From an uncultured Flavobacterium sp. (lineage in GTDB: Bacteria; Bacteroidota; Bacteroidia; Flavobacteriales; Flavobacteriaceae): a DNA stretch of 64,000 nt. Below the pieces are notes generated by a model, which was not told the origin of the DNA, searched no databases, and saw only the letters and a program-made list of their open reading frames with translations. This document shows, piece by piece, positions 2,877 to 20,038 of this stretch (position 1 is its first letter; each line of letters begins with the position of its first letter). The stretch spans positions 174,083-238,082 of the forward strand of contig CAZSOC010000001.1 in assembly GCA_964608415.1 (NCBI GenBank), read 5' to 3'. The position numbers and the translations under genes are program-made.

Positions 2877-4024
2877 AGAGATCAATAAAAAAACTGCTGT
2901 TTATTTTTGTTTTGATTGTACTTTCCTACAAGAATTACAGTCAAAAGGATCCTCGTGTTGACAGTATTATAGATCAGGCTACATTAAAAATATACGAAAA
3001 TCCGGATGAATCTATCCAAATCGGAAAATCTATTTACGAAGATCATCAAAATAGTAACCGTTCAAAAGTAAAAGGATTGATTTTGATTTCGGATGGATAT
3101 TCTTCCAAAAGAAATTATCAAAAAGCACTGGAATATTTAATAAAAGCCAATCAATTAAGTACAGATTTGAGTGATAAATCTCTGGAAATCAATATTTATA
3201 TTAAAATAGCTTACCAATACCAACAATTACGGATTTTTGATAAAGCTTTGGACTATCTGGAATTATCAGAAAAAATGAGTATTAACCTTTCCGAAAAAGA
3301 CTCTACATATTTGTCTTTATTGGGCAATAATTATATGATAAGAGGTTTTATTTATAAAGAAAAACTTAATTGCGAAGCCGCCGTAGTATATTTTGACAAA
3401 GGAATAGATCAATATTTAAAAATTAAAAGTTCTTTTGTTGATGCAAATCTGAGTATAGCAAATTATAACAAAGGGAATTGCTTTATACAATTGAAAAATA
3501 TCGAAGCTGCAAAAAGTAGTTTTATTACATCTATACAGATTGCAGAAAAAATCCATGCCAATAGTCTTTTGGCATTTTCCAAGAAAGGCTTAGCCGAAGT
3601 TTTTACTTTAGAAAAAGACCATCACAAAGCAATTGCTGTTTTGACAGAAGCAGAATTATTATCTAAAGATGTAGGAGATCTGGTACTTAATAAAGCTATA
3701 TACTTTTATTTCTATCAAAACTATCATGCCTTGAACGATTGGGAAAAATATCAGAAATATCAAAGATTATTTTTGAAAACACAACTCGATATTAAAGCCT
3801 TGGAAAGAAAATCGATCAGTCAGACTTTAGATCAGAATTACTCGGAACTTGAATTAGAATTAGAAAAAAAAGAACCTAACTATTTGTTTGTAATTATAAC
3901 AATAAGCGTTTTAATATTTCTAATTGTTTTTTTTATTTTTTTGAACGAAAAAAAATCACAAAAAAGACTTCAAAAACTACAGATTGAGATAGAAAAGCTT
4001 CAAAAACGAAGAAAAAGCACTTAA
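2873..4024 (+). CDS. Membrane-anchored TPR protein without DNA-binding domain
   Basis: Signal peptide ending ...YSQ, several TPR-like repeats (YQKALEYLIKA, FDKALDYLELS, ANYNKGNCF), C-terminal TM and short coiled-coil tail; ATGA overlap with the upstream gene. Confidence 0.8.
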   Translation: MKRSIKKLLFIFVLIVLSYKNYSQKDPRVDSIIDQATLKIYENPDESIQIGKSIYEDHQNSNRSKVKGLILISDGYSSKRNYQKALEYLIKANQLSTDLSDKSLEINIYIKIAYQYQQLRIFDKALDYLELSEKMSINLSEKDSTYLSLLGNNYMIRGFIYKEKLNCEAAVVYFDKGIDQYLKIKSSFVDANLSIANYNKGNCFIQLKNIEAAKSSFITSIQIAEKIHANSLLAFSKKGLAEVFTLEKDHHKAIAVLTEAELLSKDVGDLVLNKAIYFYFYQNYHALNDWEKYQKYQRLFLKTQLDIKALERKSISQTLDQNYSELELELEKKEPNYLFVIITISVLIFLIVFFIFLNEKKSQKRLQKLQIEIEKLQKRRKST

Positions 4025-4253
4025 TTAAATAACTATTTTAGTTTTAACGATAACATTCTTTAAGTCAGAAAGTTATGTCTTATTTTTTTATATTTAAATT
4101 CGGTAAAACCGATAGAACTTTTTAGTTGTTGAGAAAATAATAGTAATACATTTAGAACGGAAAATAAAAATATGATCTAAAAAAGACGTCAATTTTAAGT
4201 CACATTTTCACTCTAAAACACACTATTAAATTATTAACCTAAGGAGTTTATTT

Positions 4254-7200
4254 ATGAAAAAAATTATTTTATTAATTACCTTTCTTTTTTCAATTGAAGG
4301 CTTTTCCCAATGTACCAGGATGTGGATGTTCCCGTATCAAACTGTGTATTCCAATAATTTAGGAGGAGTTCAAATTGTAACAGAAGGAGTAAGTACATTA
4401 GAGTATTCGGAAGTAGGAGGATTAATTGTAGGAAATGATTATGAGTTTACATTAAAATCTTCACAATCAAACCATAAGTACATTACAATTACAGATTGGT
4501 CTAATACGGTTTTAGGTCATGGTTTCTCTCCATTAACTATTGAGAACATCACCTCTTCTGAAATAAGAATGCATTATGCAGAAAATTCGGAGTGCGTCAG
4601 TTCTGAAGATATAGTAAATACCTCAACTATTCAAAATTTAATAGATTGCCCTGCGCCATCAGATATTGAAATTGCTGAGATCAATACAACTACTGCAGAG
4701 TTTATGTGGTCGGCAGTAGCCGAAGAAACGGCATGGGAAGTTTTGGTATTAGAAGCAAATGCAACACCACCAACCGATTTGACTTCAGGAATTCCGGTTG
4801 AAGATATTCCTGTGTATGTTGCAGAAAATTTAGATCCGGGATCTTATTATATCATTTATATCCGGGGAAATTGTGGGGACGAATTCAGTCCTTGGAATAA
4901 GATGTCTTTTTCAACAAATTGTAACTTACTCGACGGCTTAAATGAAAATTTTGATGTAATTCCTTCTTCATACGAATATGGAGATCTTCCGGTTTGCTGG
5001 TCAAAAATTATTTTCCCGGAAAATAGCGATAGTGCTACATTAGGAACTGTAAATTATAATTCAAATTCCGGAGAGTATGCTGTTTCTTTATATAATGGAA
5101 ACTTAGGAAACACAGGGAATATTATTTTAGTTTCTCCCGAATTATCCAATTTGTCTGATGGAACCCACAGATTAAAATTTTATACTAAAACCGCTTACGG
5201 AAACGCATTTTTAGAAATAGGAACAGTTGGATCTACTGCTAATAACGCGCCATTTTCTTTCCTTGAAGAGGTTTCTGTAAATGATGTTTATAGTCAAAAA
5301 GTAATAGATTTTAGTTTGTATGAAGGAGCAGATACTCATATTGCGATTCGTTTAAAAAGCGAACAAAACTGGACCGGGGTTTTTGTTGATGACATAATAT
5401 GGGAAGTGTCACCACTTTGTCCGGATGTTACAGATATAAGCGTATTAAATACGGATATTGATTCAGCATTAATTTCCTGGGATATCGATGGTCTTGAAAC
5501 AAACTGGGAAATTGCCTATGCAGAATTTACAGTAAATGACCCTTCGGGACTTACTCCGTTGGTAACAGAAGACAATTTAGTAAACGAAATGACCATTACG
5601 GGATTAGAATCTAACACTAAATATAAAGTTTGGATAAGATCTGTATGTGGTGAAAATCTAGGTGCCTGGATTGGTCCTGTTGTGTTTAATACTGCCTGCG
5701 AAGCAATGGATTTGTTTGTTGAAGATTTTGAATCTGCTCAAAACAATGAGCTTCCGGAATGCTGGTCGTCTATTATAAGAGGTGAGAGTGTATCGTCTAT
5801 GGCTTCGGTGTCTATTGTACAAAATAGCGCTAATTCAGGGAATCAATGTGTTGCGTTTGATAGCTGGAACTCGGGTCTGGATTCAGATATTATACTTGTT
5901 TCTCCAAATTTAAGCACATTGAATACTGCAACTCATCGATTAAAATTTTATGCAAGAAGTTATAATAATTCCAGTATTCAGGTAGGAACTTTGAACTCTT
6001 CAGCTGGTTCTGCTGTTTTTACCAATGTTAAAAATGTTAATGTAACGACCAATTATTTGGAGTATACAGTAGATTTTTCAGATTATTTGGGTACAGATAC
6101 CTACATAGGAATCAGACATAATGGAGGAGATTGGAGTACAATTCTTATTGATGATATTCGTTGGGAAAGTATTCCTGATTGCGCAGATGTACAAAATATA
6201 TCAGTTCCTTTTACAACCTTAAATACTGCAACGATAACCTGGAGTCCCGGAGATGCTGAGCAAGAGTGGGATTTGGTTTATACAAGCGGATCAGTATCCA
6301 ATCCAAATACATTAACTCCTATTAATTTGACAGTAGGAGCAGATACAGAATATATAATTAATGAACTTTCACCAAATACTTCGTATAAAGTTTGGGTAAG
6401 ATCTGTATGTGGTGAAGATCTGGGTGCCTGGATGGGACCGGTTTATTTTTCAACTCCGTGTTCTCCTACAGATTTTTTTATAGAAGATTTCGAACAAACT
6501 GCTATGGAAGAAATTCCTGCCTGCTGGAGCTCTATTCTTAGAGGGCCAAGTCTTTCTTCTTTTGCTGGAGTATATGTTTTGGATTTTCAACCAATTGGAG
6601 GTTTGAAATCTATGACATTATCAAACGGTGTTTCCGGTCCGGGAACAGATATAATTTTGGTAACTCCATATTTGGAAAATCTAACAGCAACTCCGCATCG
6701 TTTGAAATTTAAAGCTTCAGCCAATTCATCGTCTAAAGTTCAGGTGGGAACGATAAATGTTGCCAACTCAAGTGGTGTGTTTGATTTTATTGAAGAATTT
6801 CAAGTAAATTCAAGTAATCAGGAATTCACCATAGATTTTACAGATTATGAAGGAGTAGATCGATTTATCGCTTTCCGTCATAGTAACGATGATTCTTTTC
6901 AAACGATTATTTTAGATGATATAAGATGGGAAGAGGTTCCGTTATGTTCGGATGTAACACAAATTCAAGTTCCTCAAATTACTGAAAATACTGCAACTGT
7001 TACCTGGAATACATCAGGAACAGAAACACAATGGCAAGTTGCTTATGGATTAGCAACAATTACAAATCCAAATACAATAACTCCTGTACCTTCTTTTCAG
7101 ACAGAAATTAATATTGACGAACTTCAGGATAATACTCTTTATAAAGTTTGGGTAAGATCTGTTTGCGGAGATAATTTTGGAGCCTGGATCGGAGCTGTTA

Positions 7201-7949
7201 CTTTCAGAACATCTTGTTTGTCGGTTAGTGATTTAAATGAAGGTTTCGAAAATTATGCACAAGGAAGTTTGCCGGATTGCTGGTCAAAAATCATTAGAGG
7301 TGAAGATGTTTCCTTTTCGTATATTGAAGTTGCAGAATACAATGGATATAGTGGAGTAAACTCTGTAATATTGAGAAACAGCAGCTCAGACTTTGATGAT
7401 GAAGTAATTTTGGTTTCTCCAAATTTAGGAGCTACTCTTTCGGCTGCGACACATCAGCTTAGATTTCATGCCTATTCTTATAATTCGAGCTCTATTGCTG
7501 TTGGAACGTTAGATTATAACAATGATTTTGCGGTGTTTAATAACCAACAACAAGTGGCACTTTCGGATAACTATACAGAATATATTTTTGAATTCCCTAC
7601 TGCAACAATTGAAGATAAGTATATCGGAATAAGACATATTGCCCAACCGGGAAATTATACTGAAGTATATATTGATAATGTGGTTTGGGAGACAAATTTG
7701 AATTTGGATAATTTTAAAAATTCAAGCTTGAAATATTTCCCTAATCCGGTTAATGATATTCTCAATATAACAGACGAAAATATAATTTCTCAAATTGAGG
7801 TCTATAATTTATTAGGGCAAAAATTAATGCATACACAAACAGATTCAAATGCAGTACAAGTTAATATATCTAATTTGTCTTCTGGAACTTATCTTCTTAA
7901 GATTAAAGTTGGTGAAACATTAAAAAGCATTAAAATTATTAAAAAATAG
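4254..7949 (+). CDS. Large T9SS-secreted protein: 4x (fibronectin type III + cleaved-adhesin/choice-of-anchor-J-like domain) + CTD
   Basis: Signal peptide ...GFSQ; four Fn3 units (C-x-x-V/P...W...YKVWVRSVCG...W) alternating with four E-x-F-E/D...LP-x-CWS-x-I...ILVSP-x-L...HRL-x-F...DD-I-x-WE units; C-terminal YFPNPVNDIL...LSSGTYLLKI...IKIIKK T9SS CTD. Confidence 0.85.
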   Translation: MKKIILLITFLFSIEGFSQCTRMWMFPYQTVYSNNLGGVQIVTEGVSTLEYSEVGGLIVGNDYEFTLKSSQSNHKYITITDWSNTVLGHGFSPLTIENITSSEIRMHYAENSECVSSEDIVNTSTIQNLIDCPAPSDIEIAEINTTTAEFMWSAVAEETAWEVLVLEANATPPTDLTSGIPVEDIPVYVAENLDPGSYYIIYIRGNCGDEFSPWNKMSFSTNCNLLDGLNENFDVIPSSYEYGDLPVCWSKIIFPENSDSATLGTVNYNSNSGEYAVSLYNGNLGNTGNIILVSPELSNLSDGTHRLKFYTKTAYGNAFLEIGTVGSTANNAPFSFLEEVSVNDVYSQKVIDFSLYEGADTHIAIRLKSEQNWTGVFVDDIIWEVSPLCPDVTDISVLNTDIDSALISWDIDGLETNWEIAYAEFTVNDPSGLTPLVTEDNLVNEMTITGLESNTKYKVWIRSVCGENLGAWIGPVVFNTACEAMDLFVEDFESAQNNELPECWSSIIRGESVSSMASVSIVQNSANSGNQCVAFDSWNSGLDSDIILVSPNLSTLNTATHRLKFYARSYNNSSIQVGTLNSSAGSAVFTNVKNVNVTTNYLEYTVDFSDYLGTDTYIGIRHNGGDWSTILIDDIRWESIPDCADVQNISVPFTTLNTATITWSPGDAEQEWDLVYTSGSVSNPNTLTPINLTVGADTEYIINELSPNTSYKVWVRSVCGEDLGAWMGPVYFSTPCSPTDFFIEDFEQTAMEEIPACWSSILRGPSLSSFAGVYVLDFQPIGGLKSMTLSNGVSGPGTDIILVTPYLENLTATPHRLKFKASANSSSKVQVGTINVANSSGVFDFIEEFQVNSSNQEFTIDFTDYEGVDRFIAFRHSNDDSFQTIILDDIRWEEVPLCSDVTQIQVPQITENTATVTWNTSGTETQWQVAYGLATITNPNTITPVPSFQTEINIDELQDNTLYKVWVRSVCGDNFGAWIGAVTFRTSCLSVSDLNEGFENYAQGSLPDCWSKIIRGEDVSFSYIEVAEYNGYSGVNSVILRNSSSDFDDEVILVSPNLGATLSAATHQLRFHAYSYNSSSIAVGTLDYNNDFAVFNNQQQVALSDNYTEYIFEFPTATIEDKYIGIRHIAQPGNYTEVYIDNVVWETNLNLDNFKNSSLKYFPNPVNDILNITDENIISQIEVYNLLGQKLMHTQTDSNAVQVNISNLSSGTYLLKIKVGETLKSIKIIKK
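5622..7195 (+). repeat. Intragenic DNA repeats encoding the Fn3 YKVW(I/V)RSVCG-x-x-x-GAW motif
   Basis: TATAAAGTTTGG(A/G)TAAGATCTGT(A/T)TG... begins at 5622, 6384 and 7140 (spacing 762 and 756 bp). Confidence 0.8.
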
Positions 7950-7978
7950 TTGTTTTAATATAGTTAATATTTTTTTAG

Positions 7979-8009
7979 AACCTCCTATCTTTTTAGGAGG
8001 TTTTTTTTT
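7979..8009 (+). terminator. Rho-independent terminator
   Basis: AACCTCCTA-TCTTT-TAGGAGGTT followed by a T run. Confidence 0.85.
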
Positions 8010-8243
8010 GACTTTAAAAACCATATAATTTCAAGTATCTTCTGGTTTTATATTCAACATCCCATCACAGGAGAAAGAATAGAAATCCGAGACGGAAGAT
8101 TCTATACCTTAATTTATACAATAGAAAATTAATTCATTGACAATAAAGCAGTAATAGATGTTAACCATTTAAGTAGGGGAATCTATATTTTAAGAATAAA
8201 TATGAATGACCATATCGAAAGTCATGAGATAGGGGTTCAATAA
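8010..8243 (+). pseudogene. Relic of a T9SS C-terminal domain
   Basis: Manual translation: ...FWFYIQHPITGERIEIRDGRFYTLIYTIEN*FIDNKAVIDVNHLSRGIYILRINMNDHIESHEIGVQ*. In-frame TAA at 8130-8132; IDVNHLSRGIYILRI matches the CTD tail pattern; no start codon. Confidence 0.55.
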
Positions 8244-10978: not shown

Positions 10979-11593
10979 CTAAAATAATCCGTTTATTTCG
11001 GCATCAATACGGTTAATAATGTTTCCTAAATCTTCCGGATTATCGACAAAGTTGATATTGTCCACATCGATAATTAATAATTTTCCTTTATCATAAGTTT
11101 GCACCCAGGCTTCATATCTTTCATTCAAACGGGATAAATAATCTATCGAAATAGAATTTTCATAATCTCTGCCGCGTTTGTGAATCTGCCCGACAAGATT
11201 CGGGATCGAACTTCTCAGATAGATCAAAAGATCCGGAGCTTTAACCAGAGACTCCATTAACTCAAAAAGAGAAGAATAATTGCTGAAATCACGATTGGTC
11301 ATTAGACCCATGGCGTGCAAGTTGGGAGCAAAAATATGTGCATCTTCATAAATGGTCCTATCCTGAATAATTTTTTTGCCGCTTTCCCGAATTTGTAAAA
11401 TTTGCCTGAAACGACTGTTTAAGAAATAGATTTGTAGGTTAAAAGACCAACGTTCCATCTGATGGTAAAAATCATCTAAATAGGGATTGTCTACTACATC
11501 TTCAAAATGAGGTTCCCACTTAAAATGTTTGGCTAATAAATTGGTTAAAGTAGTTTTTCCAGCGCCAATATTTCCTGCTACTGCTATGTGCAT
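10979..11593 (-). CDS. Deoxynucleoside kinase (dNK family)
   Basis: P-loop IAVAGNIGAGKTT; EDVVDNPYL, DRTIYED and lid IHKRGRDYE motifs. Confidence 0.92.
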   Translation of the reverse strand: MHIAVAGNIGAGKTTLTNLLAKHFKWEPHFEDVVDNPYLDDFYHQMERWSFNLQIYFLNSRFRQILQIRESGKKIIQDRTIYEDAHIFAPNLHAMGLMTNRDFSNYSSLFELMESLVKAPDLLIYLRSSIPNLVGQIHKRGRDYENSISIDYLSRLNERYEAWVQTYDKGKLLIIDVDNINFVDNPEDLGNIINRIDAEINGLF

Positions 11594-12378
11594 TATGGTA
11601 TTGTTATTTTATAATTGGTAATTACTTGATTGGTAAAAATAGTCAAAATTTGTTCTTTGTAAGAAAAACTTTCAATGCTTTTCTCATTTATTTTTACTTC
11701 TAAAATAGAGTTGCTTTTTAAATCTTTCCAATACAATTGATTTTCAATTTTATATAAAATCTGATGATTCTGAATAAATAAGATCTGATCGGAATTTTCC
11801 TGTATTCCAAGTTTTGAAATTTTTCCATACAAATCGCATTGATAAAATTGATTATTTTCATCAATCCAGAAAAAGTAATTAAAATTACTGCTGTAGGTTT
11901 TAACCGCGTTATCAAACGGGGTTCCGAGTGACTTCCATTGTAAACTATTCAGATCTAAAACACCTAACCGGCGTGTGTTTTCATCAAAAACCCATATTTT
12001 GTTTTGTGCCGCCTGGCCAATGGCATCGGCAAGTAAAGCAGGATTTAATTCAGAAAAATTAATACGCTGGATTTCATTCAACTGATTGTCAAGTAATACA
12101 GCAGTATTGAAATTTTTATAAAAAACCAAAATTTTCAATGGATTTTGAATATCTACTGTAGTGATTTTACCTAAAGAAAAATTGAAGTAATCCAATTTCT
12201 TATTTTGATCAACTTTAATCAATCTATTTTTGTCTATACAATAAATAGCGTTATATTGGTCTGTGCCAATATACCGGTTTACAGTTAGGTCAACCTGGGA
12301 TAGTTTAGAAACCTGTATTTCCTGACCATTGGTTCTGGTTACGATTAAGATATAAAATATAAAAAGTAAAAATCTCAT
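11593..12378 (-). CDS. Hypothetical exported beta-rich protein
   Basis: 261-aa ORF with signal peptide ...TNGQ; short beta-strand repeats; TAATG stop/start overlap with the dNK gene. Confidence 0.7.
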   Translation of the reverse strand: MRFLLFIFYILIVTRTNGQEIQVSKLSQVDLTVNRYIGTDQYNAIYCIDKNRLIKVDQNKKLDYFNFSLGKITTVDIQNPLKILVFYKNFNTAVLLDNQLNEIQRINFSELNPALLADAIGQAAQNKIWVFDENTRRLGVLDLNSLQWKSLGTPFDNAVKTYSSNFNYFFWIDENNQFYQCDLYGKISKLGIQENSDQILFIQNHQILYKIENQLYWKDLKSNSILEVKINEKSIESFSYKEQILTIFTNQVITNYKITIP

Positions 12379-12510
12379 AATTGGCTAATTTACGGAATTC
12401 TCAAATTAACTTAGGTATAATTTTCATTATTCAATTGTGAAATCTATTTGAAATTCTTTTGTAACATTATTTAAAAAATGAAGTCATATATAAAATTAAA
12501 AACTTCCATT

Positions 12511-13386
12511 ATGAAACAATATATATTTACATTCCTGGTATTATGTCTTTCTGCTTCGGTTTTTGCCCAAAGAGATTTTCAGGGAAGAGCAGTTTACGAA
12601 TCCAAAACTTCAATGGGAGATTTTTCTAAAATGATGCCTAAAAACAGAGAAATCACCCCCGAAATGCAAAAAATGATTGAAGATCGTGTGAAGAAGATGT
12701 TAGAAAAAACATTTGTTCTTGATTTTGACCGTTCCGCATCAACTTATAAAGAAGAAGAAAAACTAGATGCAACAGGCAATAACCAAATGAACAGAATGTT
12801 TAGCTCGATGTCCGGTCTGGGCGGAGTATATTATAAAAATGTAAAAGAAAAAACATTTACAGTCGATAAAGAGTTTATGGGAAAGGAATTTCTGGTAAAA
12901 GACTCACTCTCAAATTACGATTGGAAAATGGAATCCGAAACCAAGCAGATAGGAGGTTATACCTGCTATAAAGCAACTGCTGTAAAAAAACTGGAGGCAA
13001 CAGATTTTAAAAATATGGTTCCAAAAAAAGACGCAGATTTATCTCAGGAAAAAAAAGAGGAAAAACAAACCAATTTCTTTGATAACTTTGAAGTACCATC
13101 AGAAATAATCATTACAGCTTGGTATACACCCGAAATCCCGGTAAATCAAGGACCGGGAGAATTTTGGGGATTACCCGGATTGATATTGGAAGTGAATGAC
13201 GGAAAAACAGTAATCCTTTGTTCTAAAATCGTAATGAACCCTAAGGAAAAAACCAGAATAATTGCACCAAAAAATGGTAAGGTTGTAACCCAGTCTGAAT
13301 TTGACAAAATTATGATGGATAAGATGAAAGAACTACAGGAGTCCGGACCGGGAGGAAGAGGATTTCAGATGAGAATGGGAAGATAA
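12511..13386 (+). CDS. GLPGLI family protein
   Basis: FWGLPGLILEV motif, AWYTPEIPVNQGP, signal peptide MKQYIF...VFAQ. The ATG at 12511 is preferred over the ORF-track start at 12478. Confidence 0.9.
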   Translation: MKQYIFTFLVLCLSASVFAQRDFQGRAVYESKTSMGDFSKMMPKNREITPEMQKMIEDRVKKMLEKTFVLDFDRSASTYKEEEKLDATGNNQMNRMFSSMSGLGGVYYKNVKEKTFTVDKEFMGKEFLVKDSLSNYDWKMESETKQIGGYTCYKATAVKKLEATDFKNMVPKKDADLSQEKKEEKQTNFFDNFEVPSEIIITAWYTPEIPVNQGPGEFWGLPGLILEVNDGKTVILCSKIVMNPKEKTRIIAPKNGKVVTQSEFDKIMMDKMKELQESGPGGRGFQMRMGR

Positions 13387-13389
13387 AAC

Positions 13390-14070
13390 CTAGACCAATA
13401 ATTTATAGCCTTGGCCACGAACATTTATGATATGGATGTTTGGGTCAAGGCTTAATTTTTTTCGAAGTTTTGTAATAAAAACATCCATACTTCTACCGTT
13501 GAAAAAATCGTCGTCACCCCATATTTTTTTAAGGACTATCGATCGGTCCAGGATTTCATTTTTATTTTCGTTTAAAAAATAAAGCAGTTCGGCTTCTCGA
13601 TGAGTAAGAGAAATAAGGGTGTCTGCAAATTGTAAGGTTTGTTTTGTAAGGTTGAAAACGTAGGAACCGATGAAAATATTTTCTTCTGTTTTTTCGGTAC
13701 TAATCCTGCCCAAAAGAGAATGAATCCGGACAATCAGCTCTTCCATACTGAAAGGTTTTTTCAGGTAATCGTTTCCACCTAAATTAAATCCTTCAACAAC
13801 ATCCTGAGTTTGCGATTTGGCGGTCAGGAAAATAATAGGAATTTTTTTATCGAGTTTTCGGATGTCTTTTGCTAACGAAAAACCATCTTTTTTAGGCATC
13901 ATCACATCCAGAACCAAAAGATCAGGTTTTTGTTTTGTAAAAGCTTCAAAGGTTTTTTCGCCATCTTTACAATGTACAACCTCAAAGCCTCGTGTTTCCA
14001 GGCTTTCCTTGATGATTAACGCCAATGCCGGTTCGTCTTCGGCTAAAATAATTTTGATTTTATTGGACAT
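13390..14070 (-). CDS. OmpR/PhoB-family response regulator
   Basis: AEDE, LVLDVMMP (phospho-Asp), FLTAK, DYLKKPF; winged helix LTHREAELL...SMDVFITKLRKKL...NVRGQGY. Confidence 0.93.
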   Translation of the reverse strand: MSNKIKIILAEDEPALALIIKESLETRGFEVVHCKDGEKTFEAFTKQKPDLLVLDVMMPKKDGFSLAKDIRKLDKKIPIIFLTAKSQTQDVVEGFNLGGNDYLKKPFSMEELIVRIHSLLGRISTEKTEENIFIGSYVFNLTKQTLQFADTLISLTHREAELLYFLNENKNEILDRSIVLKKIWGDDDFFNGRSMDVFITKLRKKLSLDPNIHIINVRGQGYKLLV

Positions 14071-15664
14071 CCGGCAAACTTATTTTAAAGATTGTTGTTT
14101 TTGAATTTGGAACCAATTCTAATGTTCCGTAATGTTTTTCGATAATTTTTTTAGAATAGAACAGACCTATGCCGAAACCTTTCACATCGTGCACGTTGCC
14201 TTTTGGAATACGATAGAATTTATCGAAAATCTTTTCACGTTGCGTTTTATCAATTCCGGCTCCGTTGTCTTCGATTGTGATTATGGTTTGCTTCCCGGTT
14301 TTGGATAAGCTAACGTTTATGTTGTTTCCTCCATATTTTATAGCATTATCGATCAGGTTGGAAATTGCATTTTCGAAGTGAAATACATCAACTTTACAAT
14401 CCGGATTTTCCAGATGGGTATTGAAAGTGATTTTTTTATCGGAAACCATTTGATGTTTTTCGATATTGGATCGGATCAGTTCTGTAATATTTACATTTTC
14501 TTTATTAAGAACCAATTGGTTGGTGTCGAGTGATGCAGTTTCCAGTAACTTTTCGACCATAATTTCCAGTTTTTTTAGTTGTTGTCCGGAAATGTTGAGG
14601 TAACGATTGGTTTTTTCTTTGTCGTCAGCTTCATTAAAACTCCTGATTCCTTCAATTGCAGACGATATAGTTGTTATAGGAGTCTTGAATTCGTGTGTGA
14701 TATTACTGATCAGATCGTTTTTTATTTCATCGATTTTTTTCTGCCTGTTAATGGTTTTTAGCAGATATAACAAACAAAAAATGATGGAAAGTGAGAGCAA
14801 TAATGAAAGGATAATTTCGGTAAAACTTCTTTTTAAAATTAAAATGGTTGGGTCAGAAAAGGAGATCTGTAATTTTTGATTTGGTGGCAGATAGGTCGAA
14901 TTTGAAAAAGTAGATAAAGGTAATTCTGTTTTGTTGTTGTTTTGAAATTGATCAAAAATAGTATCTTCTTTAAAATGTTGCAGACTATAATCTATCGCAA
15001 TATTTTTTCTGATAAGTTCGTTATTTACAGCTTTGCTGAGTTTGTCAAACTTTATAGAATCCTGAACCATCGAAATTATGATCCTGTTGGCAAAATCTTT
15101 TAATTTTAATAAGCTATCGGTTGCCTTTCTGCCTTTTAAAACTTTAATAGAAGAAATTTCACTGCTTTTTCCGTGAACTTCTATTTTGGATCGAACTTTT
15201 ACATATTTATTTGTTGAATCAGAGAGTCGTGCTGTAACAGAATCTTTAATTTTTTGGGGAATATCGGTTTTATTGATACCATCTGAAATTTCCGAATAGT
15301 TTATAGATAAAGCATACTTTAGTGTAGTATCCTTTGTACCGGTAAAATTGTTTTTTTTTGACAGATGTGTTTTTTTATGATTTTTGGAATTGAATTTTTT
15401 AAGAACGGTATCCAGTTTTATCTTGTTAAAGAAATTCGTATTCGAAACAGAGTCATTCTCGTCTATAAAAGCGAGGAAATCATTTTTAGAATCTTCTACA
15501 TAATAATATTCGATGCTATTGTCAAATGCGGTTTGTACTTCCTTGATGAGTTGTGCTTTGTTTTCTTTATAATTTTTGAGGTTCCAGTAAATTTGTAAAC
15601 CTATGGTTGCCAGTATAGTTATGGTAATAAAAAGTAATATGTATTTGTATTTTCCCGATTTCAT
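14060..15664 (-). CDS. Sensor histidine kinase
   Basis: Two TM segments around a periplasmic domain; H box SNITHEFKTPI, N box NLIDNAIKYG, G boxes DNGAGI and GFGIGL; overlaps the regulator by 11 bp. Confidence 0.93.
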   Translation of the reverse strand: MKSGKYKYILLFITITILATIGLQIYWNLKNYKENKAQLIKEVQTAFDNSIEYYYVEDSKNDFLAFIDENDSVSNTNFFNKIKLDTVLKKFNSKNHKKTHLSKKNNFTGTKDTTLKYALSINYSEISDGINKTDIPQKIKDSVTARLSDSTNKYVKVRSKIEVHGKSSEISSIKVLKGRKATDSLLKLKDFANRIIISMVQDSIKFDKLSKAVNNELIRKNIAIDYSLQHFKEDTIFDQFQNNNKTELPLSTFSNSTYLPPNQKLQISFSDPTILILKRSFTEIILSLLLSLSIIFCLLYLLKTINRQKKIDEIKNDLISNITHEFKTPITTISSAIEGIRSFNEADDKEKTNRYLNISGQQLKKLEIMVEKLLETASLDTNQLVLNKENVNITELIRSNIEKHQMVSDKKITFNTHLENPDCKVDVFHFENAISNLIDNAIKYGGNNINVSLSKTGKQTIITIEDNGAGIDKTQREKIFDKFYRIPKGNVHDVKGFGIGLFYSKKIIEKHYGTLELVPNSKTTIFKISLPDVQ

Positions 15665-15703
15665 TTTTCAAAAGTAAGGACTAAATGTATAAAAAAACAC
15701 ACC

Positions 15704-15729
15704 GTTAACAATCGTTAACTTTGGTTAAC
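15704..15729. promoter_or_regulatory. Three phased GTTAAC repeats, candidate response-regulator binding site
   Basis: GTTAAC starts at 15704, 15714 and 15724 (10-bp period), just upstream of a near-consensus -7 box TTAATTTG at 15752-15759. Confidence 0.6.
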
Positions 15730-15893
15730 CGAAACTAAGAATTAGAGTAGCTTAATTTGCATTGAAGTTTCGAACCGATTTCTTTTTTGAGTTAGTTATA
15801 CGGTTTAGTTAAGATTCTTCCTTCCTGTTTCGAGGATAAAGGCGTTGACGAGGAAAGCTTCTTAAAAAAGAATATTAATTTAAAATTTAGAAT

Positions 15894-16736
15894 ATGAACA
15901 GATTAATTATTAGAATAACATTGATTGTAATGTTGGTATCGACAAGAATGTTTGCGCAGGATTTTTACGGAATGGCAGTTTATGAGTCAAAAACCAATCT
16001 TCGCAACATGAAAGTTGAAAGCAAGGATATGGATGATGAGATGACTAAAAGATTAACGGAAATGATGAAGAAACAATTTGAGAAAAAGTATTTACTGAAT
16101 TTTAATAAATATGAGTCGGTTTATGAAGAGGAGCAAAAACTGGAAACGCCTTCTGCAAACTCTGGCGGATTTTCAGTTAGAGTAGAAAGTAGCGGAAATG
16201 GTGGAAAAACATATAAAAATATAAAAGAAAAAGTACAAATTGTAGAAGAAGCGTTTTTTGGAAAAGAGTTTTTAATTACAGACTCTTTGAAGATTTGGAA
16301 ATGGGAATTGAAAAATGAAACCAAAAAGATAGGAAATTACACTTGCTATAAAGCAGTTGCTATAGATCCTGTAACAGAGGAAGACTTAAAAAGATATGAA
16401 GACTTTAAGAAGCAGCAGGAAACAGCAAAAACTGCATTTTTTATAATGGATGAACCTAAAGACAGAGTAACAACGGTTTGGTATACTCCGGAAATTCCGA
16501 TAGGTCAGGGACCGGGAGGATTTTGGGGATTGCCCGGGTTAATTTTGGAAGCCAATTTTGATGAAACCGTAATTTTATGCTCCAAAATAATTCTTAATCC
16601 TAAAGATAAAATCGAAATTAAGAAGCCTAAAAAAGGAAAAAAGGTAACAAAAAAGGAATATGATAGTCTAATTGAAAAGCAATTGGAAAAGATGAAAGAT
16701 GAAAAGGGAAATATTAAAATTGAAATTAACAGATAA
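15894..16736 (+). CDS. GLPGLI family protein
   Basis: FWGLPGLILEA motif, WYTPEIPIGQGP, signal peptide ...MFAQ; clear paralog of the 12511 gene. Confidence 0.9.
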   Translation: MNRLIIRITLIVMLVSTRMFAQDFYGMAVYESKTNLRNMKVESKDMDDEMTKRLTEMMKKQFEKKYLLNFNKYESVYEEEQKLETPSANSGGFSVRVESSGNGGKTYKNIKEKVQIVEEAFFGKEFLITDSLKIWKWELKNETKKIGNYTCYKAVAIDPVTEEDLKRYEDFKKQQETAKTAFFIMDEPKDRVTTVWYTPEIPIGQGPGGFWGLPGLILEANFDETVILCSKIILNPKDKIEIKKPKKGKKVTKKEYDSLIEKQLEKMKDEKGNIKIEINR

Positions 16737-16766
16737 TTCTTTATAATCAGTACTTATATATAAAAA

Positions 16767-19454
16767 ATGCAAAAAAATATCTTTATTGTCGTGTTCTTTT
16801 TATTCGGGATTTTAGCAAAAGCCCAAAGTGTGAAACTTGAAGGATTCGTAGTAGACGAATCGGCTTTACCTCTTGAAATGGCAAATGTTATGGTAATAAA
16901 CGAGTCTACCAAAGCTATGGACGGATATTCTATTACCAATGACAAAGGCCGTTATCTTCTGAATTTAAAAGCCAATACAACTTACCTGATCAAAGTGAGT
17001 TACATTGGGTTTGTCCCTTTTGAAGAAACTATAAATACGTCAACAGAGAATATTTCAAAGAACATTATTCTTAAAGAAGGTTTAGAACTGGAAGGAATTG
17101 AGATTGTGCATGAAATGCCCGTTTCTATAAAAGGAGATACGATAGTTTACAACGCAGATTCTTTTACTACAGGTACAGAAAGAAAACTCGAAGATGTGCT
17201 CAAAAAACTTCCGGGAGTTGAAGTTAATGCCGATGGAGAAGTAGAAGTAGAAGGGAAAGTAGTACACAAACTAATGGTTGAAGGAAAAGATTTCTTTGAT
17301 GGAGATACCAAATTGGGAGTAAAAAATATTCCGGCAGATGCAATTGATAAAGTTCAGATCCTGAGAAATTATAACGAGATAGATCAAATGAAAGGGTTAG
17401 GAAACGACCAGGATAATATCGCAATGAATATTAAGCTCAAAGAAGGTAAAAAGAATTTTTGGTTTGGAGATATTAGTGCAGGAATTGGTGTTGCTCATAA
17501 AGAAGAACGATATATTGTAAACCCGAAATTGTTCTATTACAATCCAACATACAGTATCAATCTGATCACTAATTTCAACAATATAGGAGAACTGCCTCTT
17601 ACGATTCAGGATTATTTTAAAATGACGGGAGGATTTAGAAACATGATGTCCAAAGGAGGTTCTAGAATTAATATTGCTTCGAACGATTTGGGGATTATGA
17701 TGATGAGGAACAATCGTGCAAAAGAAATAGAAACCCGTTTTGGTGCCGGAAATTTTTCTTATAATGTAAATAAATCATGGCGTTTGAGCGGTTTCGGAAT
17801 TCTCTCTTCTTCTACTACAGAAATGGAAACGATATCACAATCTAAAATTTTAGATCAGGATGTAGAACAAAAAAGTACTTCTTCGTCTGTTGTAAAATCT
17901 ACTTTGGCAATGTCAAAATTAAGTTCCAGTTATAAGCCAAACACTTCCGTTCAGCTGGATTATGATGTGATGTTTAAAACCTCAAAGCAAGACGAAATGA
18001 CCCATCTGGACAGAACGGTTATCAATGCAGGAAATGCGGATGAGGAAAATATTTTGACGCAGAAAAACCAAAAACCGGTAAGTGTAACCCAAAATGCGAG
18101 TTTGTATTATACGATCAATGATAAAAATATTGTAACAGCAGAGTTGCAGCATTTATACCAAAACGAGGATCCGTTCTATAATGCAGATATGAAAACCGCA
18201 CCGTTTGATCTTTCAGGATACAATTTTTTACAAGCCAGAAACAATATCAATCAGGAACGTTTTGTGCAAACCAACAAGATCGATACAAAAATTGATTATT
18301 ATTATGTATTGACCAACAAAAGCAATATTAATTTTACTTTAGGAAATACGTATTCTCATCAAGGATTTAATTCTAATATTTTTCAGGTTCTGGATAATGG
18401 AAATGTAAATAATCTTGACGATACAGAGAATCAAAACAATGTTCGTTACGATTTTACAGATACATTTTTAGGGGTTCATTATAAAATTTTAACCGGGAAA
18501 TTTACCATAACTCCGGGGCTTAATTTTCATCAGTTTTCTATGAAAAACGAGCAGTTAGGAACAGTGTCCAAAGAAAATTTCAATAGAATTCTGCCGGATT
18601 TGAATATCATTTATCAAATCAAAAAATCAGAATCACTCACTTACGATTTTGCTTATACGAATAATTTTACCGATATTAATCAATTGGCAGAAGGTTATCT
18701 GTTTTCCGGATACCACAGTTTGTTTAAAGGAAATCGTAATTTAGAAAACTCAACGGCAATTACACACTCCTTGAGGTATTTCAAATTTAATATGTTCAAT
18801 CAGGAAAATATTTTTGCATATATCAACTATTCAAAAACACAGGATGCAATAAAAACCAATGCAGTTTTTGACGGAATCAATCAATCGTCAACGCCGTTTA
18901 ATTCTAATTTTGAAGATCAGTCCTTTACAGCATCTGCAAATTACGGAAGATCTATTTTCAGAAAACTTAAAGGAAATGTGGGCGCATCGGTAAACTGGAT
19001 GAGATACAACAACATCAGAAATTCAGAATATATTGCAGTAGAATCGCTTTTACAAAATTATACCGGGAAATTATCTACCAATTTCAGGTCGTTTCCTAAT
19101 CTCGAATTCGGATATACTTTTTCTGTAAACGATTACGCAGACAATCAGTTTTATACTCACAAACCATTTGCAAGTCTGGATTATTATTTCTTAGACGGAT
19201 TTAGTTTTAAAACAGATTATGAATTTTATAATTATTCGAACAAAGAAAAAACAGTAAAGAACCAGTATGATTTTCTTTCTGCAAGTTTTGCATATCAAAA
19301 GAAAGGCGGAAAATGGGAATACAGAATCTCAGGGACCAATTTGCTTAACACCAGATCACTCAATAATGATAGTTTTACCCAGTTCGTTACTAATACTTCA
19401 CAATATCGTGTACAGCCGCGTTATGTAATTTTAAGTTTGAAGTATAATATTTAA
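16767..19454 (+). CDS. Outer-membrane beta-barrel protein with N-terminal carboxypeptidase-regulatory-like and plug-like domains
   Basis: Signal peptide ...AKAQ; GFVVD...ANVMV...GRY...YLIKVSYIGF N-domain; IKGDTIVYNADSF...LEDVLKKLPGVEV plug-like segment; amphipathic strands ending LSLKYNI. Confidence 0.8.
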   Translation: MQKNIFIVVFFLFGILAKAQSVKLEGFVVDESALPLEMANVMVINESTKAMDGYSITNDKGRYLLNLKANTTYLIKVSYIGFVPFEETINTSTENISKNIILKEGLELEGIEIVHEMPVSIKGDTIVYNADSFTTGTERKLEDVLKKLPGVEVNADGEVEVEGKVVHKLMVEGKDFFDGDTKLGVKNIPADAIDKVQILRNYNEIDQMKGLGNDQDNIAMNIKLKEGKKNFWFGDISAGIGVAHKEERYIVNPKLFYYNPTYSINLITNFNNIGELPLTIQDYFKMTGGFRNMMSKGGSRINIASNDLGIMMMRNNRAKEIETRFGAGNFSYNVNKSWRLSGFGILSSSTTEMETISQSKILDQDVEQKSTSSSVVKSTLAMSKLSSSYKPNTSVQLDYDVMFKTSKQDEMTHLDRTVINAGNADEENILTQKNQKPVSVTQNASLYYTINDKNIVTAELQHLYQNEDPFYNADMKTAPFDLSGYNFLQARNNINQERFVQTNKIDTKIDYYYVLTNKSNINFTLGNTYSHQGFNSNIFQVLDNGNVNNLDDTENQNNVRYDFTDTFLGVHYKILTGKFTITPGLNFHQFSMKNEQLGTVSKENFNRILPDLNIIYQIKKSESLTYDFAYTNNFTDINQLAEGYLFSGYHSLFKGNRNLENSTAITHSLRYFKFNMFNQENIFAYINYSKTQDAIKTNAVFDGINQSSTPFNSNFEDQSFTASANYGRSIFRKLKGNVGASVNWMRYNNIRNSEYIAVESLLQNYTGKLSTNFRSFPNLEFGYTFSVNDYADNQFYTHKPFASLDYYFLDGFSFKTDYEFYNYSNKEKTVKNQYDFLSASFAYQKKGGKWEYRISGTNLLNTRSLNNDSFTQFVTNTSQYRVQPRYVILSLKYNI

Positions 19455-19543
19455 GGAATAAAAAGGGACGTATAAATGAGTTGACTGCAAGTTTACATCA
19501 CAATTCTGCTAAAATGAAAATTAATCTCATAAAAAATAATCAA

Positions 19544-20038
19544 ATGGAAGCAAATTCGACAGACAAAAAAAAATTTCAACTTACCGAAAACGGACAACAA
19601 TTAGGAGAGCTGATTTACGAAAATGTATTTTTCCTTAAAGCAGAAATTAAACTGTCAAATTCAGAACTGTATGAACTTGCTCCAGTTGGTTTTTTTGGAA
19701 CAAGCATTGCAGTAACCAAAAACGGAGAAGAAATAGCAAGTTTAGTGATGAATTGGCGTGGACAAATTGTAATTACTTTTCAAGGCGGACAAGAAGTTGT
19801 TATAAAATTGATTGAATTATTCAACAATAAATTCATTATTGAAAATAAAGACCAAGAAAAGTTAATTCAACTTGAACTGAAATTTAATTGGAGAGAGTTC
19901 CATTATAATTACAATATTACATACGACATCACAAATGATAATATACCTAAGGATAATTTATTACTACTACTGGGTGTATATGCTGCCAACTATTTTGTAG
20001 CCACTATGGCAGGAGCTAACGCAGGAATGATGTATTAA
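19544..20038 (+). CDS. Hypothetical protein
   Basis: Open frame 19481-20038; ATG at 19544 (MEANSTDKK) preferred. Beta-rich with a C-terminal hydrophobic helix LLLLLGVYAANYF; family not recognised. Confidence 0.65.
   Translation: MEANSTDKKKFQLTENGQQLGELIYENVFFLKAEIKLSNSELYELAPVGFFGTSIAVTKNGEEIASLVMNWRGQIVITFQGGQEVVIKLIELFNNKFIIENKDQEKLIQLELKFNWREFHYNYNITYDITNDNIPKDNLLLLLGVYAANYFVATMAGANAGMMY

Follow-up and report, generated by a model that had tools for sequence, protein, structure and literature searches.

What do GLPGLI proteins do, and with which partners? The family holds 10,434 clusters at 50% identity (profile search) and has been reported in the animal pathogen Riemerella and in the oral pathogens Porphyromonas and Tannerella. 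In the searchable literature five papers mention it, each as a table entry or gene annotation only. The original prediction for the DNA studied here had described GLPGLI as a family expanded in Bacteroidota and without a known function. We approached the question through one locus of an uncultured Flavobacterium sp. (assembly GCA_964608415.1, 2.9 Mb in 132 contigs), within a stretch of 64,000 nucleotides of contig CAZSOC010000001.1 (C1:174083-238082) that we refer to as the window. At this locus, a sensor kinase, a response regulator, a GLPGLI protein and an outer-membrane barrel are encoded side by side. On balance, we think it probable that these form a four-component envelope module in which a sensor switches a GLPGLI protein and a TonB-type barrel, the GLPGLI protein being the periplasmic, cargo-binding partner of the barrel.

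Gene content of the locus

All five genes that the original prediction had placed at this locus were confirmed at the positions claimed. GLPGLI-1 (12511-13386, plus strand) encodes 291 aa when counted from the second ATG, with an alternative ATG upstream at 12478; the protein is exported and belongs to a lineage that we call GLP1-type. Next to it, on the minus strand, are the genes for an RprY-like response regulator of the OmpR/PhoB family (13390-14070, Response_reg and Trans_reg_C domains) and for a sensor histidine kinase (14060-15664, HisKA and HATPase_c), which overlap by 11 bp. GLPGLI-2 (15894-16736, plus strand; 280 aa, exported) is the first gene of the regulated operon, and the gene for the 895-aa barrel (16767-19454, plus strand) follows after a gap that was predicted to be, and measures, exactly 30 bp. 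The kinase-regulator operon, which had been called a divergent pair, is divergent relative to GLPGLI-2 but convergent with GLPGLI-1, with 3 bp between the stop codons. Similarly, two GLPGLI genes do flank the two-component system in the window, but the conserved unit is smaller: a regulator-kinase pair divergent from one GLPGLI gene, which may be followed by the barrel gene.

GLPGLI genes are linked to barrel genes across Bacteroidota

Within the Flavobacterium genome itself, all four GLPGLI loci (the window and contigs C8, C35 and C45) end in a barrel paralog. We then compared the coordinates of GLPGLI, barrel-profile and kinase matches, with a limit of 6 kb, in 150 evenly drawn Bacteroidota genomes (151 with our own). 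The GLPGLI family PF09697 is present in 32 of these 151 genomes, including our own. Outside our own genome, 47 of the 64 GLPGLI matches lie within 6 kb of a listed barrel match; the GLPGLI gene comes first in 31 of these, with gaps of ~200-400 bp, and the barrel gene in 14. Two matches in one genome (G007) also precede a diverged barrel of 894 aa, which brings the total to 49/64 (77%) in 30/31 genomes. No more than six barrel candidates entered the count for any one genome (roughly 4 Mb each), and by a rough estimate chance adjacency would be ~2%. The co-occurrence of GLPGLI and barrel genes, proposed earlier as a check on the system, is therefore a strongly conserved linkage, although not an obligatory one.

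Ten orthologous barrel loci from other Flavobacteriaceae encode barrels that are 49-62% identical, and nine of them have a GLPGLI gene directly upstream. The exception is Flavobacterium macacae (L020; L denotes comparison loci), where a gene for a 2002-aa type IX secretion substrate and one gene with CarboxypepD_reg only are inserted before the barrel; the 2002-aa gene, with a CHU_C domain, lies between the GLPGLI genes and the barrel (L020:2590-8598). In a comparison of 19 loci, no genes other than those for GLPGLI, barrel, regulator and kinase were shared by different taxonomic families.

The other modules of the genome differ in composition. The one on C8 (C8:274-8739) has six tandem GLPGLI genes with small open reading frames (ORFs) between them (80 aa, 3947-4189; 77 aa, 4993-5226) and then a barrel, which is 31% identical to the window barrel over its full length. 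Those on C35 (8194-12441) and C45 (4989-9059) each consist of two small secreted cysteine-containing ORFs, one GLPGLI gene and one barrel gene. In these three modules such ORFs precede the GLPGLI genes, whereas at the window locus no small cysteine-rich cargo gene was found among all ORFs of at least 25 aa listed between 12300 and 20400.

Linkage extends to the two-component system. A kinase homolog is divergent from GLPGLI in 9 of the 31 sampled GLPGLI genomes, from three other families, and the arrangement of regulator and kinase opposite GLPGLI was confirmed by tblastn in all nine. In total, the arrangement is found at 14 loci from several families.

A conserved three-box operator in front of GLPGLI-2

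The region between the kinase gene and GLPGLI-2 contains three GTTAAC boxes at 15704-15729, starting at 15704, 15714 and 15724 and thus with a period of 10 bp. From the end of the last TTAAC box it is exactly 26 nt to the TTTG in the -7 box of the GLPGLI-2/barrel operon (TTAATTTG, 15752-15759, plus strand). Three TTAAC boxes were found in the kinase-GLPGLI intergenic regions of all 14 loci (the window, L012-L014 and L021-L030, of which L014 is from F. qiangtangense and L021 from Aquimarina). The boxes start at 0/+10/+20 in six of these (five Flavobacteriaceae and L022) and at 0/+10/+31 in the other eight. Together with two separate barrel promoters (L028 and L029), there are 16 operator sites, and all 16 keep 25-26 nt between the end of the promoter-proximal box and the TTTG of a -7 box that resembles TAnnTTTG. 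This fixed spacing means that the boxes occupy the place of the Bacteroidota -33 element. A scan for sigma-70 promoters and terminators was uninformative, as Bacteroidota promoters are of the -33/-7 type.

In L028 and L029, the barrel gene lies outside the GLPGLI operon and has its own three-box site at the same distance from the -7 box. GLPGLI and barrel thus share their regulation even without a common transcript. The exact three-box site occurs once in the 2.9-Mb genome, against an expectation of 0.01 in the window, and a genome scan that allowed two mismatches at the right distance from TTTG returned only the GLPGLI-2 promoter. The system therefore looks dedicated to one operon. The three-box site is the presumed docking site of the adjacent regulator, and the kinase-regulator pair very probably switches on the GLPGLI-2/barrel operon. 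The conserved linkage and the fixed-position operator support the core of the original prediction: an envelope system under regulation, with GLPGLI proteins that are exported and act as partners to a barrel of their own. For the more specific roles that it offered (carrier or chaperone; import, export or stress response), which are putative, the available clues are the fold and the genes nearby.

The boxes have the palindromic form GTTAAC in the window, L012 and L013, and can also be read on the minus strand, 30-31 nt before TACTTTTG, which in the window is the candidate -7 box of the kinase-regulator operon (15669-15676, minus strand). This reading suggests autoregulation, with the kinase-regulator operon under its own regulator via the shared boxes. 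Just 4 nt separate the candidate -7 box from the kinase ATG, so that the kinase may be translated from a leaderless mRNA. On the other side, the GLPGLI-2 leader (15760-15893, from the -7 box to the start of the gene) measures ~134 nt in the window vs ~25 nt in L012-L014; this 134-nt leader has no Rfam match, and its fold z-score of 0.55 gives no sign of structured RNA.

We also considered GLPGLI-1 as a member of the same regulon. Its promoter region (12406-12450, plus strand) has a single TTAAC (12406-12410), 36 nt before the TTTG (12447-12450) of a -7-like box, and no three-box operator. As far as the strict operator is concerned, the candidate was rejected on account of this single box and of the two-mismatch genome scan, which misses the site. 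GLPGLI-1, which represents a distinct paralog lineage and has a promoter of its own, probably does not belong to the regulon. A single TTAAC 36-37 nt before the -7 TTTG is kept in the GLP1-type promoters of L012, L013, L014, L016 and L018; its position is that of box 2 of the operator, and it is kept even in loci without the two-component system.

The kinase and the regulator

The kinase consists of a transmembrane segment, an extracytoplasmic domain of ~255 aa, a second transmembrane segment, HisKA and HATPase_c. Its core, from about residue 257, matches solved kinases (E=2.6e-53). The extracytoplasmic domain matches no Pfam family, and a 12-sequence profile gave no match in the Protein Data Bank (PDB) before residue 257. 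The regulator, with a receiver and a winged-helix Trans_reg_C domain beside a HisKA/HATPase_c kinase, forms with it a two-component system of the OmpR/PhoB family. Its best NCBIfam match is RprY (NF051850, equivalog), at 285.6 bits vs a cut-off of 370; we therefore call it RprY-like and not RprY. It is the best RprY match in the genome, where three paralogs score 220-276 bits, and it shares 80% identity with its orthologs in L012-L014.

A paralogous RprY-like two-component system is encoded on another contig of the genome (C47:4812-8018; kinase 5944-7326, regulator 7323-8018). Three TTAACC boxes with 11-bp spacing lie on the minus strand at ~5888-5914, between this system and a divergent ORF (4812-5870) for an exported alpha/beta-hydrolase-like protein. 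They are of the type seen in the window operator, but with another spacing and another target.

Location and fold of the GLPGLI proteins

Both proteins belong to the GLPGLI family, as had been predicted. They score 188.8 bits (GLPGLI-1) and 172.1 bits (GLPGLI-2) against TIGR01200, which has a cut-off of 50, match PF09697 (Porph_ging) over its full 81 positions (E=8e-31 and 1.2e-26, respectively), and share the motif FWGLPGLILE, with 45% identity to each other. In an alignment of 49 GLPGLI sequences, W211, G212, L213, G215, L216 and I217 are invariant and P214 is nearly so; Cys229 is also invariant and Cys151 nearly invariant. A match to PF22252 is weak (25.2 bits, below the cut-off of 27.6).

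Each protein has an N-terminal signal peptide of the signal-peptidase-I type that ends in VFA|Q or MFA|Q (SVFA|QRDF in GLPGLI-1), and neither sequence contains a lipobox or a type IX secretion domain. GLPGLI proteins have been detected in the outer-membrane-vesicle proteomes of P. gingivalis and T. forsythia. The signal peptides, the conserved cysteines and the detection in vesicles all fit an extracytoplasmic protein. As there is a signal peptidase I site and neither lipobox nor type IX secretion domain, the location is most likely periplasmic.

Sequence searches of the PDB gave no match for GLPGLI-2 or for the barrel. The AlphaFold model of GLPGLI-2 (pLDDT 76, pTM 0.70) is bowl-shaped, with a curved antiparallel sheet and helices. 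Its best Foldseek match is the N-terminal domain of PNGase F-II (E=5e-7 to 1e-5, TM 0.46-0.48; PDB 4r4x and 7zgn), followed by ependymin-related proteins (E=3e-4). Matches to LolB (E=0.26) and to the LolA-LolB complex (E=0.5) are not significant. The PNGase F-II N-terminal domain, ependymin and LolA/LolB are all curved beta-sheet bowls, and ependymin and LolA hold hydrophobic ligands. Unlike these, GLPGLI is a stand-alone protein with extra helices, and on the model it does not belong among the LolA/LolB carriers, the likeness being at the level of a bowl-shaped sheet only.

The barrel resembles TonB-dependent transporters

The barrel protein has a signal peptide (aa 1-20) and an N-terminal extension (aa 21-105) in which Pfam recognises CarboxypepD_reg (residues 24-105, E=6e-10), the carboxypeptidase-regulatory-like N-domain of the original prediction. 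In the AlphaFold model (pLDDT 79, pTM 0.69), a beta-sandwich (21-102) is followed by a linker, a plug-like alpha/beta domain (119-224) and then beta strands to the C-terminus. The predicted plug-like domain is thus present in the model, but Pfam Plug gives only a weak match (E=0.53), and 7 of 22 relatives match it, likewise weakly. The linker between extension and plug-like domain is of low confidence (107-116, pLDDT below 50). It contains a conserved hydrophobic strand motif, GIEIVHE (aa 109-115), as candidate TonB box; conserved residues in the region are L108, I113, E116 and P118.

With the barrel model as query, Foldseek gave 220 PDB matches (E<=1e-3), and each of the top 50 is a TonB-dependent transporter or a complex of one. 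Top matches include Cir (1.2e-17), PhuR, FoxA, FhuA and BtuB, with TM-scores of 0.36-0.49 on the target and alignments to TonB-dependent transporters that span >800 columns. These matches, made with a predicted structure, point to a TonB-dependent-transporter fold with a large beta-barrel. Close homologs are named in the sources "TonB-dependent receptor" or "carboxypeptidase-like regulatory domain-containing protein". The window barrel has no match to PF14905 (OMP_b-brl_3) even at E<=10, while 4 of the 22 aligned relatives do, the best at 5.5e-16. The operator-bearing barrels of L028 and L029, which were recovered both by the window barrel (tblastn) and by the barrel profile, match OMP_b-brl_3 at 1e-41.

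CarboxypepD_reg is also found in neighbours of GLPGLI that are not full barrels. In L013 (3930-5679) and L020 (681-2016), the gene for a secreted protein of ~309 aa is followed at once by an extra GLPGLI gene (truncated in L020). CarboxypepD_reg is the only Pfam domain of the L020 protein, and in L013 the domain is read from sequence only. The neighbour in L027 is a DUF5686 protein with a CarboxypepD_reg match in Pfam. These neighbours are a possible clue to the contact surface of GLPGLI.

Evolution of the locus

We created a maximum-likelihood tree of 34 GLPGLI proteins. GLPGLI-2 falls within a clade of two-component-linked copies (support 100/99). GLPGLI-1 groups, with weaker support (85/77), with the GLPGLI copies that lie directly before the barrel in L016-L019, from Flavobacterium without the two-component system. 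Copies that are linked to such a system in other families branch deeper. In Flavobacterium, the module site is fixed beside the gene for an exported 261-aa ORF (ORF261) and a deoxynucleoside kinase gene, and the module takes two forms. In one, ORF261 is divergent from a GLPGLI gene that precedes the barrel. In the other, ORF261 is divergent from GLPGLI-1, and this is followed by the regulator-kinase pair, divergent from GLPGLI-2 and the barrel. These two forms and the tree reveal that either GLPGLI type can be the sole neighbour of the orthologous barrel. None of the seven same-genus genomes in the sample has a kinase beside the module. The simplest reading of the tree and gene orders would be that the two-component-linked form is ancestral, that GLPGLI-1 arose as a Flavobacterium duplicate, and that most species lost the block of regulator, kinase and GLPGLI-2.

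Proposed mechanism and alternative explanations

From the gene linkage, the operator with its fixed position and the folds, all obtained by comparing sequences and models, we propose the following course of events. The kinase would sense a signal via its large extracytoplasmic domain and phosphorylate the RprY-like OmpR-family regulator, which would then bind the three helically phased TTAAC boxes at the place of the -33 element. Binding would activate the GLPGLI-2/barrel operon and probably also the divergent kinase-regulator operon. The barrel would act as a TonB-dependent-transporter-like channel, made of N-terminal extension, plug and barrel. GLPGLI-2 would be exported by Sec, cleaved by signal peptidase I and most likely remain in the periplasm, where its bowl, of the LolA/ependymin/PNGase F-II N-domain type, may contact the barrel and bind its cargo, hydrophobic or peptidic, from the periplasmic side. 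GLPGLI-1 would be an older paralog that, from its own promoter, could serve the same barrel.

The top transporters matched by the barrel model are all known as importers. As the top structural matches of the barrel are TonB-dependent transporters, and as a Flavobacterium outer-membrane transporter of the same Pfam make-up is induced by phosphate starvation (PMC8115612), we favour import over export. GLPGLI-2 would then most likely receive the imported substrate.

Several observations weigh against this proposal. The window barrel stays below the thresholds of both Pfam Plug and OMP_b-brl_3, and GLPGLI resembles LolA/LolB proper only weakly (E 0.3-0.5). One sampled genome (G027) has ten GLPGLI genes scattered among unrelated genes, none of them beside a barrel, and three two-component-linked GLPGLI genes are without an adjacent barrel of the family. 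Finally, the modules of the 19 loci share no conserved gene for an inner-membrane transporter, TonB or an ABC system, which weakens a simple nutrient-import reading.

The most serious rival, which we nevertheless regard as unlikely, is an export route in which GLPGLI is a periplasmic adaptor that takes over cargo exported by Sec and passes it to the barrel, to be released or displayed on the cell surface. The modules on C35, C45 and C8 would fit such a route through the small secreted cysteine-containing ORFs just upstream of their GLPGLI genes, but the window locus has no cargo gene. In favour of export are also the closest structural match of GLPGLI, which is the N-terminal domain fused to the secreted enzyme PNGase F-II, and the lack of a conserved inner-membrane uptake component in the module. 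However, the top structural matches of the barrel are known as importers, and a TonB-type barrel that works outward has one precedent only.

A role in envelope stress or lipid handling, with GLPGLI as a LolA/RseB-like binder of lipids, lipopolysaccharide or lipoprotein acyl chains and the barrel co-induced rather than a physical partner, appears rather improbable. It agrees with the resemblance of the fold to lipid-binding ependymin and, weakly, to LolA/LolB, with the ten orphan GLPGLI genes of G027 that have no adjacent barrel, and with the regulon of Riemerella anatipestifer PhoP, which is rich in envelope genes including LptD (PMC9603813). Against it stand the tight adjacency (gaps of 200-400 bp, and 30 bp in the window) in 30/31 genomes, the apparent joint divergence of GLPGLI and barrel paralogs in our own genome, and the duplication of the operator onto the barrel promoter where the barrel gene lies apart.

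That the genes are chance or hitch-hiking neighbours without functional coupling, and the TTAAC boxes a chance repeat, has a negligible probability: the GLPGLI-barrel linkage is indeed not universal, but adjacency stands at 77% vs ~2% by chance (the rough estimate above), the exact three-box site occurs just once in the genome, where 0.01 would be expected for the window, the boxes keep the same 25-26-nt distance in 16 promoters from several families, and protein identities of 24-60% between loci disfavour recent horizontal copies of one element.

Comparison with known systems

The closest regulatory parallel comes from R. anatipestifer, where five GLPGLI genes are direct targets of the OmpR-family regulator PhoP, as are genes for an outer-membrane beta-barrel and a TonB-dependent receptor (DAP-seq, electrophoretic mobility shift assay and RNA-seq; PMC9603813). 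TTTAACA is the most conserved core of its motif (DAP-seq), and PhoP autoregulates (PMC9603813). PhoP/PhoR thus shares with the window system an OmpR-family regulator in Flavobacteriales and a motif core that matches the (g)TTAAC(a/c) boxes; the two regulators are likened by motif and targets. Unlike PhoP, which is global (583 peaks) and has dispersed GLPGLI targets, the window system looks dedicated to the adjacent operon.

The arrangement of the boxes recalls EnvZ/OmpR of E. coli, which controls ompF and ompC via three sites arranged in tandem and in phase with the DNA helix, right before the core promoter. Both systems combine a membrane kinase and an OmpR-family regulator with an outer-membrane barrel as target and three phased sites. 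However, the target in the window is a TonB-transporter-like barrel with a putative periplasmic partner instead of a porin, the promoter is of the -33/-7 type, and the kinase has a 255-aa extracytoplasmic domain without a family match.

Partner genes coupled to TonB-type barrels are known from SusC/SusD, BtuB/BtuG and HmuR/HmuY, whose partners, all surface lipoproteins, act on the outer side by capping or feeding the barrel. The likeness lies in the coupling of a partner gene to a TonB-type barrel with a CarboxypepD_reg extension, and hmuY-hmuR also has the partner gene first and the barrel second, as in GLPGLI-2 and its barrel. In contrast, GLPGLI has no lipobox, is probably periplasmic and has a fold unrelated to SusD, BtuG and HmuY. 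No SusD-family gene or surface lipoprotein partner was found at the locus, which is thus not a SusC/SusD-type pair.

The single precedent for outward transport is Oar, a TonB-dependent-transporter-like protein that is reportedly needed for PopC secretion in Myxococcus xanthus and for which outward transport has been proposed. Oar shares the architecture of CarboxypepD_reg and a TonB-type barrel. It differs in having no GLPGLI partner and in belonging to another phylum, and no finding on the window module demonstrates export.

Neighbouring genes

The exported 261-aa ORF (11593-12378, minus strand) has no family match and is divergent from GLPGLI-1. Its position is kept in seven Flavobacterium loci, with and without the two-component system, and it may be part of the module or a mere syntenic neighbour. 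A 185-aa ORF (19481-20038, plus strand) comes directly 3' of the barrel. Its C-terminus is hydrophobic, and it matches a lantibiotic immunity domain below the threshold (Spa1_C, E=0.047); a homolog, 26% identical, was found near the barrel in L017 only. In G027, two tandem GLPGLI genes lie downstream of a gene for a BlaR1-type Peptidase_M56 membrane protein (616 aa) and a 125-aa ORF (L033:5252-9454). The 125-aa ORF might encode a BlaI-like repressor, and a second type of signal transduction may thus be coupled to GLPGLI.

Implications for the GLPGLI family

Each part of the module has known counterparts, among two-component systems, TonB-type barrels and LolA-like bowls. We found no description in the searchable literature of the combination of a periplasmic GLPGLI partner with a dedicated operator. 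The four-gene unit and its presumed docking site, which recur across Bacteroidota, give the orphan GLPGLI family a testable partner and a testable switch. As the locus comprises one sensor, one regulator, one 26-bp operator and one target operon, it is the simplest experimental handle on GLPGLI. The module would add a periplasmic, bowl-shaped partner to the known kinds of partner of TonB-dependent transporters. It also provides a hypothesis for the role of the PNGase F-II N-terminal domain, on which our search of the PNGase F-II literature found nothing.

A bolder reading, which we put forward tentatively and consider improbable, is that the GLPGLI bowl docks on the CarboxypepD_reg extension as a cargo adaptor. 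Together they would form a Bacteroidota-specific route through TonB-type barrels for hydrophobic molecules or small secreted proteins, possibly outward, with sensor systems that switch the channels. If true, this would assign a function to a family of >10,000 clusters and to the unexplained N-terminal extension of these transporters.

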